Assembly: GCA_027491915.1 (NCBI GenBank)
Contig: JAOZGC010000002.1
Location: 96,001 to 160,000, forward strand
Length of the DNA stretch: 64,000 nt
Reading direction: 5' to 3'
Origin: Thermoproteota archaeon
GTDB lineage: Archaea > Korarchaeota > Korarchaeia > Korarchaeales > Korarchaeaceae
The notes under the pieces are model-generated. The model was not told the DNA's origin. It did no database searches and was given only the letters and a program-made list of their open reading frames with translations. Below are positions 10,745-53,607 of the stretch, piece after piece; position 1 is the stretch's first letter; every line of letters starts with the position of its first letter. Position numbers and translations under genes: made by a program.

Positions 10745-12022
10745 TTGCCTCCCCAGAGAGCCGTCTATGCGGAGGACTACGGAACGTCTTACTTCAAATT
10801 CGGCCCCGTCTGGATAGGGAAATACCCGGAGATGGTAGAGAACAGGGGCTACTTTCCAAAGATATCCAAGGCCGTGGCTGAGATAAGGGGGATCGAGGCC
10901 AGGACCGTCGTGGTAGGCCCCGAGGTGTCGAACTACCTGGAATCCAGGGAAGAGTTGAGAAGGTTATACTATCCAATGCGAAACGGAGTTATCGATAGAG
11001 ATGATAGAAATGGGTGGTTAATTGTTAAAGAATTGACGAGATATGGGCTCAAGAAATTCGCCCCCGTCGGCCGCGAGTCACCCATCGGTCCCTTCGACGG
11101 CTTCTACGTTGTGGCCGCCCTGGCGGCCCAAGCCCCGAGGTACATGTACGAAGAAATCTTCTCGATACACGAGGAGATAAATTCTGAGGAGGGTGGATCT
11201 CTGGTGAAGGCCGTCACCATAATTCCGCAGCCCCTGGCGGTCGCGATAGCTGAGAAGGCCACCACCTGCACGGTCTTGGAGGCCGGCCACGGGAACACCC
11301 AAATAACCCCAATAAGCAGGGACGTCATAAGGTCGGCTCTGATACCTCTCAACCGCGGCGGCGCCGACTCGAACGCCATAACCGCCCAGATATTGAAAGA
11401 TCTTGGCTACGGAAACCTGGCTCGGGAAGAAAAATTCGTCAGGATCTTCAAGGAGATGGCCGGCCTCGTCCCGATAAACCTCGACGAGGCGGTAGAGTGG
11501 GCGAAATCCCATCCGGGCTCCCTCACGAGCTCTTTCACCGTGCCGGGAACCACCGTCAAGGTCGACATGGGGGAGAAGGCCTGGCAGCGCTTCCTGATAG
11601 GGGAGTACTTCTTCAATCCTGGCCACGAGATGTTTGAGAGCTACTATTCGGTGGGATTCACTCCCCCGAGGGACACCGTCCTGCCGGGGGAGACCATCCC
11701 GGGAGACGTTTCCCTGGCCGAGGCCATCCTCATGGCCGTGCGTAAGACACCCGTCGAGATACAACCCGGACTGCTCAGTAAGATCCTCCTATCCGGAGGG
11801 GCCTTCGGCTGGAGGGTGCCAGCTGGCCTGGAGGGAATAGCAGCCGACGCGACCCAGAAGCTGGAGACCATGCTCAGATCCCTTGGCGTGTCGACCTCCC
11901 CGAAGATGGTGGCGGAGCCCCAGTTCTCCGTGTGGCGCGGCTCGATGGTCTACGGACTGTACCTACCCGAGAGGCTCAGGTGGAGCTGGAAGAGCATGGA
12001 AGGGTGGCATCAGATAAGTTGA
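10745..12022 (+). CDS. crenactin (archaeal actin)
   Basis: DYGTSYFKFGP, YPMRNG, PQPLAVAIAE, EAGHGNTQITPIS, LNRGGA, RFLIGE, LSGGAFGWRVP, EPQFSVWRG, EGW; colinear with Thermoproteales crenactin as recalled. Confidence 0.93.
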   Translation: MPPQRAVYAEDYGTSYFKFGPVWIGKYPEMVENRGYFPKISKAVAEIRGIEARTVVVGPEVSNYLESREELRRLYYPMRNGVIDRDDRNGWLIVKELTRYGLKKFAPVGRESPIGPFDGFYVVAALAAQAPRYMYEEIFSIHEEINSEEGGSLVKAVTIIPQPLAVAIAEKATTCTVLEAGHGNTQITPISRDVIRSALIPLNRGGADSNAITAQILKDLGYGNLAREEKFVRIFKEMAGLVPINLDEAVEWAKSHPGSLTSSFTVPGTTVKVDMGEKAWQRFLIGEYFFNPGHEMFESYYSVGFTPPRDTVLPGETIPGDVSLAEAILMAVRKTPVEIQPGLLSKILLSGGAFGWRVPAGLEGIAADATQKLETMLRSLGVSTSPKMVAEPQFSVWRGSMVYGLYLPERLRWSWKSMEGWHQIS

Positions 12023-50126: not shown

Positions 50127-50215
50127 TGGTGCGGGGGGTGGGATTCGAACCCACGCGGGCCTGCGCCCACTCGGCCCTCAACCGAGCGCCTTGGACCTGG
50201 CTTGGCTACCCCCGC
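50127..50215 (-). tRNA. tRNA-Leu(GAG); CCA encoded
   Basis: GCGGGGG/CCCCCGC-ACCA; CTCGG-TTGAGGG-CCGAG; long variable arm. Confidence 0.95.
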
Positions 50216-50254: not shown

Positions 50255-51058
50255 CTATCCCCCGCCCTCCGCATTGGATATTTTCTCCTTCAATGAGTTA
50301 AATTTTTTCAATAATTCGTCCGTCGCTGCCACGAGAATTTCCCCTATTGTCAGGGCTTCGGTAGTCTCAAAGCTCATGATGAACCGACTGCCGTCCCAGT
50401 CCTCCACCTCGACGGATTCAGGATCCCTTCTCCTCTGGACCTCAATGCAGTCCTCCAACCCAGGGCAGTCTAGGTAACTCTCAACGACGTAATCTCCCCC
50501 TTCTTTCCTGAAGGAACCGTCGGGGCACCTCTCGACGTACTTCCTGCAGGCCCTGACGGCCCCTCCCCTCAACCTGTAGATCGGGTAATAGGAGTATCCG
50601 AGCCCGCTGACCGCCTGCCACTTGCTGTGCCACTTGCCTTTTCCCATCCTCACTATGGCCTCCAACTTTATCCTGGCTCCTTTGTGCATCTTCACTATGG
50701 GTATCCTCTCGTTCGCCGGGATCACAACCGGATCTGAGCTGACCAGATCCCCAGAGTAGACGATCTCCCCGTCCTCCTCTGCAACCCTGTCCAGACTAAG
50801 GGTGACCACCTTCCCATCTCCTACGGAATATGATCTAAGATCGGTCCTTATGGGCACCATCGCCAACCTGTGAGCCACGTACTCGTCAAAGTAGTGGGTC
50901 GTGTTGGTGAAGAAGACGACCTCGTCGACGGCCATGACCGGAACCTCGCCGAGGAGGGCCCTCCTAAAGGCGTTTGCGAGCGCCGGATTGGCTTTTTCTA
51001 AAACAAATTTCACGGAAATTGGTGTATGAGATACTATCTTAATCCGCATCCTCACCAC
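50255..51058 (-). CDS. rpoD: RNA polymerase subunit D (Rpo3)
   Basis: ANAFRRALLGEVPVMAVD, AHRLAMVP, VYSGDL, GKWHSKWQ. Confidence 0.95.
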   Translation of the reverse strand: MVRMRIKIVSHTPISVKFVLEKANPALANAFRRALLGEVPVMAVDEVVFFTNTTHYFDEYVAHRLAMVPIRTDLRSYSVGDGKVVTLSLDRVAEEDGEIVYSGDLVSSDPVVIPANERIPIVKMHKGARIKLEAIVRMGKGKWHSKWQAVSGLGYSYYPIYRLRGGAVRACRKYVERCPDGSFRKEGGDYVVESYLDCPGLEDCIEVQRRRDPESVEVEDWDGSRFIMSFETTEALTIGEILVAATDELLKKFNSLKEKISNAEGGG

Positions 51059-51998
51059 CCTTCTCCGACAGCACCCGGGCCCAGGGATTGTCCCGGGCGA
51101 ACTCCTCTATCAACTCGAAGGATATTGAACCTTCCGGGGGCGGGATCACCGCCTCGTCTTCCTCCCCCCTCGAGGTCGCAGTGGTCTCCTCTCCCTCCGT
51201 AGGTCGTCCTCTGGCCCCCGCCACATCACGGACGATAGATCTCCCCGAAATCGGAGCCGTTCCGGCTCTCTCCCTCGGGAGGTTTTGGAAGCCTGCCAGA
51301 TCTGAATTGATCTCTTCCCACAACGGCGGGATGCGGTCGGCGGAGCGGACAGCGATCTCCCTGTCGGCCAGCAACTTGACTATGGTCTCCAATAGATCCA
51401 ACCTCTTCTCCAGAGACCTTAACCTCTCCCGGAAGAGCTCCTCTCGGGCGGCCCCTTCACCCACCTCTCTTCCCCCTCTCGGGGGCACCACCGAGACATC
51501 GGCCTGCCGCGCGTCAAATGGGAGCCCACGATCGGTCCCGCTGGCTCCCGGGACAGGCCTCACACCCGCCCTATCTCCCTGGAGGGACATCCTGTCGAGG
51601 CTGAGCAGTTGTCCCACAACCTCTCCCCTTACGGAGAGTGAAGAGAGACTCCTAAGCTGTATTCTATCGAATATTTGCCGGTAAGCGGGCCTCTCCCTTG
51701 CCTGCGCCTCTATGAACTCTCTTAGCTCCTCGAGCTCCTCCGGCCTGATCCAGACGTGTATGGCAGATAGCTTCAATCCCCTCCCCTTGGCGTCGGAGAG
51801 CAGGGCTGCGAGCCACCGCAGGAACTCCCTCCCGGCGTCCCCGTCGTATATCGCCGACGCCACGTTTATTCTCCTGCCTGCCTTCAGATCCAGACTGAGA
51901 TAGGCCGAGGCCTCGTCCGGACCCGGTTCCAGCACCTCGGCTTCTATACCGCGCTCCCTGTACCAGTGCATCAAGAGGTCCGCGGCCGAAATGGGCAA
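51039..51998 (-). CDS. hypothetical protein (globular N-terminus, coiled coil, disordered linker, C-terminal DNPW helix); candidate arcadin-2-like
   Basis: 319-aa ORF between rps11 and rpoD with its own TATA; ends ELIEEFARDNPWARVLSEKG. Confidence 0.7.
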   Translation of the reverse strand: MPISAADLLMHWYRERGIEAEVLEPGPDEASAYLSLDLKAGRRINVASAIYDGDAGREFLRWLAALLSDAKGRGLKLSAIHVWIRPEELEELREFIEAQARERPAYRQIFDRIQLRSLSSLSVRGEVVGQLLSLDRMSLQGDRAGVRPVPGASGTDRGLPFDARQADVSVVPPRGGREVGEGAAREELFRERLRSLEKRLDLLETIVKLLADREIAVRSADRIPPLWEEINSDLAGFQNLPRERAGTAPISGRSIVRDVAGARGRPTEGEETTATSRGEEDEAVIPPPEGSISFELIEEFARDNPWARVLSEKGGEDAD

Positions 51999-52023
51999 CC
52001 CTAACTCCTTTACCCCCAGACCG

Positions 52024-52033
52024 TTATAATAAA
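52024..52033 (-). promoter_or_regulatory. TATA box for the orphan-rpoD unit
   Basis: TTTATTATAA on the minus strand about 26 nt before TTG 51998. Confidence 0.55.
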
Positions 52034-52037
52034 TGAT

Positions 52038-52436
52038 TCAGACCCTCCTGCCCCTCCTGCCGTGGGGCCTGCGAGTCCCGTCGTGAGGTATCGGCGTGAC
52101 CTCCTCCACCCTTATTATCAGCATGCCGGATCTGGCCAATCCCCTTATTGCCGCCGCGGCGCCCGGCCCAGGTATCCTGCTCTTTATGCCCCCGGGAGCC
52201 CTAACCTTGACTATCAACTGGTTCACCCCCTTGGACAAGGCCTCCTTCGCGGCCGCCATGGCCGCCTTCAGGGCGGCGTAAGGGGATCCCTCGAGTCTGT
52301 CCGCGTCGACGAACATCCCTCCAGATGCCCTGGCTATGGTCTCCCCGCCGGTTACGTCTGTTATGTGGACTATCGTGTCGTTGAACGAGGAGTATATGTG
52401 GGCCACTCCAATCCTACCTTTCTTCGGCTGCGACAT
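52038..52436 (-). CDS. rps11: 30S ribosomal protein S11
   Basis: [36 protein letters not shown]. Confidence 0.97.
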
Positions 52437-53518: not shown

Positions 53519-53607
53519 TGGCGCCGGGGGTGGGATTCGAACCCACGCGGCCCTCGCGGGCCACGGGCTCTCCAGGCCCGCCCCCTTCCGGGCTAGGGCA
53601 CCCCGGC
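53519..53607 (-). tRNA. tRNA-Ser(GGA); CCA encoded
   Basis: GCCGGGG/CCCCGGC-GCCA; CGGGC-CTGGAGA-GCCCG; long variable arm. Confidence 0.95.

Follow-up and report, generated by a model that had tools for sequence, protein, structure and literature searches.

What does the gene between those for ribosomal protein S11 and RNA polymerase subunit RpoD encode in this korarchaeal genome, and might its product act on the archaeal actin homologue crenactin? Among prokaryotic proteins outside Asgard archaea, crenactin is structurally the closest to eukaryotic F-actin, and its cellular role is unsettled. To our knowledge, arcadin-2 is the one partner whose interface with crenactin has been solved. Arcadin-2 of Pyrobaculum calidifontis was reportedly presented as a crenactin regulator by Ettema et al. 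in 2011.

A conserved gene in a ribosomal-protein and RNA polymerase operon

The window, meaning the whole 64,000-nucleotide stretch of DNA that was analyzed, includes an ORF of 319 amino acids (aa) with a TTG start codon. An earlier reading, made from the sequence alone, placed this ORF between the S11 and RpoD genes and noted an overlap with rpoD; both statements hold. By Pfam, the gene order is S13, S4, S11, the 319-aa ORF, RpoD, L18e, L13 and S9, and a tRNA-Leu gene is situated between rpoD and L18e. The genes and signals are as follows.

52038-52436, minus strand: S11 gene (Pfam)
52024-52034, minus strand: A/T-rich, TATA-like 11-mer, 3 nt past the S11 stop codon and at -36 to -26 from the start codon of the ORF
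52005-52008, minus strand: GGAG, Shine-Dalgarno-like, at -10 to -7 from the TTG start
51039-51998, minus strand: 319-aa arcadin-2-like ORF (whole gene), with homologues in the same slot in relatives
51039-51058, minus strand: 20-nt overlap of the end of the ORF with the start of rpoD (GTG at 51058)
50255-51058, minus strand: RpoD gene (Pfam)
10745-12022, plus strand: crenactin, the predicted binding partner (Pfam Actin; PDB 4cj7/5ly3 at E 3e-104)

Overlaps of 4 to 20 nt with rpoD are also present in several relatives, as judged from locus coordinates. A plus-strand ORF at 51088-51684 was rejected as a shadow of the conserved minus-strand gene.

The 319-aa ORF has no sequence match in Pfam, NCBIfam or PDB, where the sole PDB rows are at E 0.57, and the protein was its own sole match in a word-indexed homologue search of 5.8 billion clusters. 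Exhaustive phmmer searching of 1.84 billion representatives found 13 proteins at E <= 1e-3, the query included, and thus 12 others. The same slot is filled in three families of the phylum by divergent homologues of 15-36% identity. The family profile matches 38 of the 43 species genomes of the phylum (E <= 0.01), among them 33 of the 35 genomes of family f1; the two f1 genomes that it misses are 96% (G015) and 78% (G042) complete. An ORF bearing the C-terminal tail discussed below is present in 29 of the 30 best family loci, and the thirtieth locus is split. All 29 ORFs are flanked by S11 and/or RpoD, as flagged by simple patterns (S11 in 26 and RpoD in 13). Direct reading of the loci adds a tail-bearing gene after S11 in f2 (277 aa) and in f3 (323 aa), both missed by the profile, and reveals no tail-bearing gene after S11 in two f4 genomes. 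The sequence-only reading had described an orphan inserted into the cluster. Family-wide synteny rules out this description, and the gene is an orphan only with respect to Pfam, NCBIfam, PDB and the word-indexed search.

The gene had also been credited with a TATA box of its own, with which the A/T-rich 11-mer listed above is consistent. In 23 of 25 f1 loci, an A/T-rich 8-mer (at least 7 of 8 positions A or T) lies at -50 to -21 relative to the gene start, compared with a fraction of 0.24 of the background windows, namely all 30-nt windows of the same loci, which are related and so not independent. The element fits a conserved archaeal TATA box within the operon. Similarly, many relatives have a GAGGT-like element, read by eye, at a distance from the start codon like that of GGAG here. 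The TATA-like element and the overlap with rpoD together suggest that transcription begins downstream of S11 and runs on into rpoD. With a TATA-like element of its own and presumed read-through into rpoD, the 319-aa gene is probably expressed constitutively, alongside the ribosome and RNA polymerase genes.

Domain architecture

The layout proposed from the sequence, with an alpha/beta N-terminal domain of about 125 aa, a coiled coil, low-complexity linkers and a terminal helix, is reproduced by an AlphaFold2 model and by the family alignment. In the alignment, the N-domain, the long helix and the C-terminal helix are conserved, and the long helix has a variable linker on either side. The segments, all on the minus strand, are listed here.

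51576-51998, minus strand: residues 1-141, N-terminal alpha/beta domain with a restriction-endonuclease-like fold (AlphaFold2 model)
51465-51575, minus strand: residues 142-178, variable linker 1, predicted to be disordered (pLDDT < 50 at 144-177; alignment columns unconserved)
51345-51464, minus strand: residues 179-218, conserved long helix, a putative coiled coil (AlphaFold2 and alignment)
51129-51344, minus strand: residues 219-290, a short helix and variable linker 2, predicted to be disordered (pLDDT < 50 at 239-284; length and sequence vary in the family)
51057-51128, minus strand: residues 291-314, predicted crenactin-docking helix at the C-terminus (invariant Asn304, Pro305, Trp306 and Leu310)

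In the model, the N-domain has the order H-EEE-H-E-HH-E, with pLDDT about 96 for residues 1-120, and the terminal helices are at residues 294-313. Within the long helix, L196 is invariant, and L203, E204 and L210 are nearly so. The invariant residues of the C-terminal helix are Asn304, Pro305, Trp306, Leu310 and Lys313 in the 13-protein alignment, and Asn304, Pro305, Trp306 and Leu310 are still invariant in an alignment of 32 rows.

A Foldseek search of the model against PDB gave no match at E <= 0.001. The nearest named clusters in the protein Atlas, with scores of 0.81-0.88, are PD-(D/E)xK families, which is a lead and not evidence. An active PD-(D/E)xK nuclease was considered and rejected for want of a conserved catalytic triad. 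The alignment has no conserved (D/E)xK column, and Asp28 is the one N-domain position that comes close to invariance. The arcadin-2 family likewise has no conserved (D/E)xK triad. Pfam finds no ribbon-helix-helix (RHH) domain in the 319-aa protein.

The N-domain also resembles the N-terminal domain of RPB5, a subunit of eukaryotic and viral RNA polymerases. This likeness and the conserved slot between S11 and rpoD are what might be expected of a transcription- or translation-associated factor that acts at RNA polymerase, although we consider such a role highly improbable.

The tail matches the crenactin-binding peptide of arcadin-2

In a genome whose crenactin equals that of PDB 4cj7/5ly3 (E 1e-283), the ORF downstream of crenactin encodes 203 aa. 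The last 17 residues of this ORF run from Arg to Arg and contain, exactly, the Pyrobaculum arcadin-2 peptide motif that the sequence-only reading had given. The end of the ORF fits peptide R187-R203, which, according to excerpts of Izore et al. 2016 (PMC5173319), is part of a 203-aa arcadin-2 and was crystallized in the hydrophobic groove of crenactin. The same excerpts report that the complex has a Kd of 31 nM with the tryptophan as a key contact, that the peptide alone depolymerizes filaments, and that the linker before the C-terminal helix of arcadin-2 is unstructured and not conserved.

A profile comparison with arcadin-2 had been proposed as a check, and the tail matches in both versions of it. 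Aligned by hhalign to 30 arcadin-2-like proteins, the family scores 96.6% with E 6e-10 over 25 tail columns; against an alignment headed by the Pyrobaculum protein, the tail scores 96.5% with E 8e-10. Asn304, Trp306 and Leu310 correspond, at identical spacing, to the invariant Asn193, Trp195 and Leu199 of arcadin-2. With full arcadin-2 profiles, the 319-aa ORF outranks every other one of the 9172 ORFs in its genome (E 7e-5 and 1e-4). The Pfam copy that we used holds no arcadin-2 family, and the 30 arcadin-2-like proteins gave only coiled-coil noise with it. No other ORF in the window's genome has the tail, and none matches the arcadin-2 N-domain. Because its tail matches the crenactin-binding peptide, the protein is probably the missing actin regulator of this lineage.

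Crenactin loci and co-occurrence

The crenactin gene is 39 kb from the 319-aa ORF, close to the 40 kb estimated previously, and its identity is confirmed by the matches to Pfam and PDB. An alignment of crenactin retrieved 80 crenactin loci from many archaeal groups. At 52 of the 65 loci outside the korarchaeal type (L074-L138), crenactin is followed directly by a gene whose product has an Asn-(Pro/Glu)-Trp helix at its end. These tail-bearing genes encode 197-399 aa, with a median of 236. The rest of the 65 comprise 7 loci without such a gene, at least one of which carries a Kor label, 2 without enough contig, and 4 whose crenactin ORF was not recognized by the search pattern; 3 of these 4 do show a tail-bearing gene. 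Among the korarchaeal-type loci (L059-L073), which are the closest relatives, none of the 13 that could be scored has a tail-bearing gene within 8 kb of crenactin. The S11-adjacent gene and the canonical arcadin-2 gene downstream of crenactin are complementary in distribution. In f2 and f3, the S11-adjacent gene is only 11-13 kb from crenactin.

Co-occurrence with crenactin, which had been proposed as a further check, is seen at the level of whole genomes. All five families of the phylum have crenactin, and all 9 of the more distant relatives that we searched with single-protein queries have neither crenactin nor the gene. One genome (G014), which is 75% complete, has the gene and no crenactin match. 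In another class, crenactin is present in 103 of 120 genomes, and an arcadin-2 profile (E <= 1e-8) matches 99 of these 103 versus 2 of the 17 without crenactin; such counts are descriptive, as kin are not independent. The 2 matching genomes without detected crenactin, G096 and G140, are small assemblies, and their matches are to the tail only.

In three Methanomethylicus-type loci, a tail-bearing gene of 393-399 aa follows crenactin. This contrasts with excerpts of the Culexarchaeia paper, in which an arCOG survey reports no arcadins in Methanomethylicia.

Is the whole protein related to arcadin-2?

The 319-aa protein resembles arcadin-2 of Pyrobaculum calidifontis (complex in PDB 5LY3) in its Asn/Trp/Leu tail, disordered linker, long central helix and restriction-endonuclease-like N-domain. 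Both proteins co-occur with crenactin, and the docking site predicted here is likewise the hydrophobic groove. The differences are that the window's protein is 319 aa in length and has two long disordered linkers, whereas arcadin-2 has 203 aa; that its tail has Asn-Pro-Trp, as in most arcadin-2s outside Pyrobaculum, in place of the Asn-Glu-Trp of the Pyrobaculum protein; and that its gene is located between S11 and rpoD, 39 kb from crenactin, instead of directly downstream of it. Similarity in the body of the protein is marginal.

AlphaFold2 models of both proteins begin with an N-domain of order H-EEE-H-E-HH-E and continue with a long helix, from which a disordered linker leads to the terminal helix. 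In the Pyrobaculum model, whose mean pLDDT is 90, the helix spans residues 118-171 and is followed by a disordered stretch and the terminal helix. The top-50 VIA-align lists of the two models have 18 entries in common, nearly all of which are PD-(D/E)xK-type folds. Full-length hhalign gives a collinear alignment at 97.2%, but this includes the tail. With the tail removed, comparisons of the family with arcadin-2 give P values of 2.5e-4, 1.2e-3, 0.0099 and 0.0074, and comparisons of the N-domain only give P values of 0.013-0.18, always in the same register. In searches of its own genome, the ORF ranks only 17th and 21st of 9172 ORFs with tail-less arcadin-2 HMMs, behind coiled-coil proteins, and is missed by N-domain HMMs. 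These failures count against homology of the body, and sequence homology to arcadin-2 outside the tail is only suggestive.

The weak similarity of the body and the different genomic position would be explained if an unrelated coiled-coil protein with an endonuclease fold had gained the tail independently. The tail is indeed portable, since it ends RHH_1 proteins in the same phylum and helix-turn-helix (HTH) and zf-C2H2 proteins in another class. Such a protein would be a crenactin-binding adaptor for some cargo, possibly DNA, and neither a sequesterer nor an orthologue of arcadin-2. However, the protein shares its domain order and fold class with arcadin-2, and the full-length profile alignment is collinear. 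The complementary distribution, with one such gene per genome, and the proximity of the f2 and f3 genes to crenactin also speak against such a gain. We regard independent acquisition as rather unlikely.

Predicted complex with crenactin

Multimer prediction of the tail with the product of the gene at 10745-12022 had been suggested as well. The input was a 7-row alignment of crenactin together with 12 rows of the family, cut to residues 283-319. The predicted complex scores 0.90, and the best of three controls scores 0.01. At least 56% of contacts are shared between runs, and the partner has a pLDDT of 66 or more. In a benchmark, 58 of 80 solved complexes attained the pass mark, as did 2 of 110 pairs that were mismatched. 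Tail residues 300, 304-306 and 310 (with Phe300, Asn304, Trp306 and Leu310) are predicted to contact residues 167-173 and 398-408 of crenactin. These stretches were placed in the hydrophobic cleft with the help of residue numbers that we take to be those of the actin cleft. Crenactin Q164 is equated with actin Q137 in the excerpts of PMC5173319, and the invariant Gln of the window's crenactin is Q162 in the crenactin alignment, so the contacted stretches would correspond to the hydrophobic cleft of actin. The prediction indicates likeness to a solved pair and not binding; because 5LY3 is a solved structure, the pass may reflect memory.

Perhaps the tail instead binds a different hub protein, common among these archaea, and its connection to actin is a coincidence. 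Many unrelated proteins carry the tail, G096 and G140 have tail-only matches although crenactin was detected in neither of these small assemblies, and binding in this lineage is a prediction. Against this, the homologous Pyrobaculum peptide was crystallized in the crenactin groove and has nanomolar affinity, according to the excerpts of PMC5173319. The motif also co-occurs strongly with crenactin, the canonical tail gene is directly downstream of crenactin at most of the loci counted above, and the predicted complex stands well above its controls. We consider a different partner improbable.

The interpretation offered by the sequence-only reading, an arcadin-2-like regulator of actin, gains support from the tail match, the co-occurrence and the multimer prediction, with binding itself a predicted property. 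We estimate a probability of about three in four that the gene encodes a relocated and divergent arcadin-2-like crenactin binder, the arcadin-2 counterpart of this lineage. If so, a regulator can leave the actin locus and become fixed in an operon of ribosomal-protein and RNA polymerase genes. Full-text literature searches combining arcadin with Korarchaeota, Korarchaeum or Korarchaeia found no such gene in main texts, and an earlier mention in supplements is possible. The gene thus supplies a candidate crenactin regulator for a lineage in which the literature search found none described.

Possible mechanism

As an arcadin-2 counterpart, the protein would dock its amphipathic C-terminal helix (residues about 291-314) in the groove that separates subdomains IA and IIA of crenactin. 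Within a filament, this groove receives the D-loop of the next subunit and is required for longitudinal contact. Occupation of the groove should block or reverse polymerization, or cap a filament end and hold it. The long helix probably dimerizes the protein, which would give each molecule two tails on flexible linkers. The endonuclease-like N-domain, with no conserved triad, may anchor the dimer to some other partner. Sequestering of monomers or depolymerization, the effect that arcadin-2 has in vitro, is given slightly less than even odds in our estimate. It is less probable that cargo bound by the N-domain is tethered to filaments, and some other mechanism accounts for the remaining probability.

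Partial parallels are known in other systems. CdvA of Sulfolobales joins a PRC barrel N-domain, through a coiled coil and a flexible linker, to a short peptide at the C-terminus by which ESCRT-III is recruited. Its layout is analogous to that of the window's protein; the N-domain, partner and motif differ, and no homology is claimed. In the ParMRC system, ParR is an oligomeric adaptor whose C-terminal helix is likewise placed in the groove of an actin-like protein (ParM:ParR, PDB 4A62, cited in the excerpts of PMC5173319). However, the N-domain of the window's protein is endonuclease-like and not RHH, and its gene is adjacent neither to centromere repeats nor to a dedicated actin gene. The analogy to ParR is functional only. 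Thymosin beta-4 and WH2-type binders, which are discussed in the same excerpts, also use a short helix in the groove to control polymerization. They have no sequence relationship to the tail, and the orientation of thymosin is described there as opposite to that of arcadin-2.

DNA-binding proteins with the same tail

The sequence-only reading had cautioned that similar tails occur in other archaeal proteins, and this caution was right. In this phylum, the helix is also present at the end of other small proteins, two of which are RHH_1 proteins above the Pfam cut-off. One of the two adjoins a phage-integrase-family gene and a radical-SAM gene, and the other adjoins a Cdc6-C winged-helix gene and a gene of the same radical-SAM family. 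Tail-bearing RHH proteins also share the DNA-binding fold class of ParR. In the other class, all 20 regions that were picked from profile matches to the coiled-coil-plus-tail part hold a tail-bearing ORF, of 113-225 aa. Literature searches for crenactin together with ribbon-helix-helix, conducted on the full text of articles apart from supplements, found no description of tail-bearing DNA-binding proteins.

The occurrence of many DNA-binding proteins with the same layout makes a ParR-like tethering function worth testing. We speculate that the Asn-Pro-Trp helix is a portable crenactin-docking motif, and that crenactin is a host filament that moves DNA. RHH, HTH, C2H2 and AbrB-like proteins composed of a DNA-binding domain, a coiled coil, a linker and the tail, several of them on integrated or mobile elements, would then act in the manner of ParR. 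Arcadin-2 and the product of the window's gene, whose nuclease-fold N-domains would be catalytically dead, would be chromosomal adaptors of the same class instead of simple sequesterers. We think it doubtful that this broader scheme is correct as a whole. If it is, such elements could hitch their DNA to host actin without an actin gene of their own. Defined as a short motif, the docking helix lends itself to genome-wide searches, which already yield dozens of small DNA-binding proteins. DNA segregation by archaeal actin thereby becomes an idea that can be put to a direct test with peptides and purified proteins.

Judged by eye, the N-termini of the 20 ORFs in the other class comprise 10 HTH, 3 C2H2 zinc-finger, 3 AbrB/MazE-like, 2 RHH-like and 2 ambiguous domains. 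Pfam was applied to 10 of these ORFs. All 3 HTH cases and both zf-C2H2 cases were assigned above the cut-off. Of the 2 MazE-like cases, one matched below the cut-off and the other had no match. Both RHH-like cases matched below the cut-off, and one ORF had only a weak match to a DUF.

Tail-bearing proteins outside the S11 slot

The C-terminal Asn-(Pro/Glu)-Trp helix, an arcadin-2-type tail predicted to dock on crenactin, is found in several other gene contexts. At Methanomethylicus-type loci, a gene of 393-399 aa with the same tail lies directly downstream of crenactin. The arCOG survey in the Culexarchaeia paper reports no arcadins for Methanomethylicia.

L074:9327-10508, tail-bearing gene after crenactin
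L075:9218-10399, the same
L076:6022-7221, the same

The tail also occurs in crenactin-bearing archaea of another class, where all 20 ORFs fetched from 20 loci (L194-L213; 113-225 aa) combine it with a coiled coil and begin with a segment that is putatively DNA-binding, of HTH, C2H2 zinc finger, AbrB/MazE-like or RHH-like type. Profile matches reach 13 per genome in some genomes of this class.

Within the window genome's phylum, the crenactin-type tail also terminates small RHH_1 proteins, whose genes neighbour phage-integrase-family, radical-SAM and Cdc6-C winged-helix genes. Their setting resembles that of a ParR-style adaptor encoded by an integrated or mobile element, one lacking its own actin gene.

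L193:5785-6237 (+), small RHH_1 protein with tail
L187:4000-4428 (-), small RHH_1 protein with tail
L004:1698-2117, phage-integrase-family gene listed with the L193 protein

Family f4

In f4, one family of this phylum, crenactin faces a convergent gene for an SMC/Rad50-like coiled-coil ATPase (812 and 777 aa), which recalls arcadin-4. The tail gene is absent from the S11 slot (between S11 and rpoD) of both genomes. In one f4 genome, a 230-aa PspA/ESCRT-III-like coiled-coil protein, recognized by eye only, is encoded after S11, in the position of other families' tail-bearing gene.

L023:9260-11698 (-), SMC/Rad50-like gene converging on crenactin
L024:9268-11601 (-), the same
L185:769-1461 (-), PspA/ESCRT-III-like gene (by eye)

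Other features of the window cluster

A 198-aa ORF antisense to the tail-bearing gene at 51039-51998 was rejected as a gene, being a shadow frame of that conserved minus-strand gene in G+C-rich DNA. The ribosomal-protein/RNA-polymerase cluster also encloses two tRNA genes.

51088-51684 (+), rejected antisense ORF
50127-50215 (-), tRNA-Leu(GAG), between rpoD and L18e
53519-53607 (-), tRNA-Ser(GGA), upstream of S13
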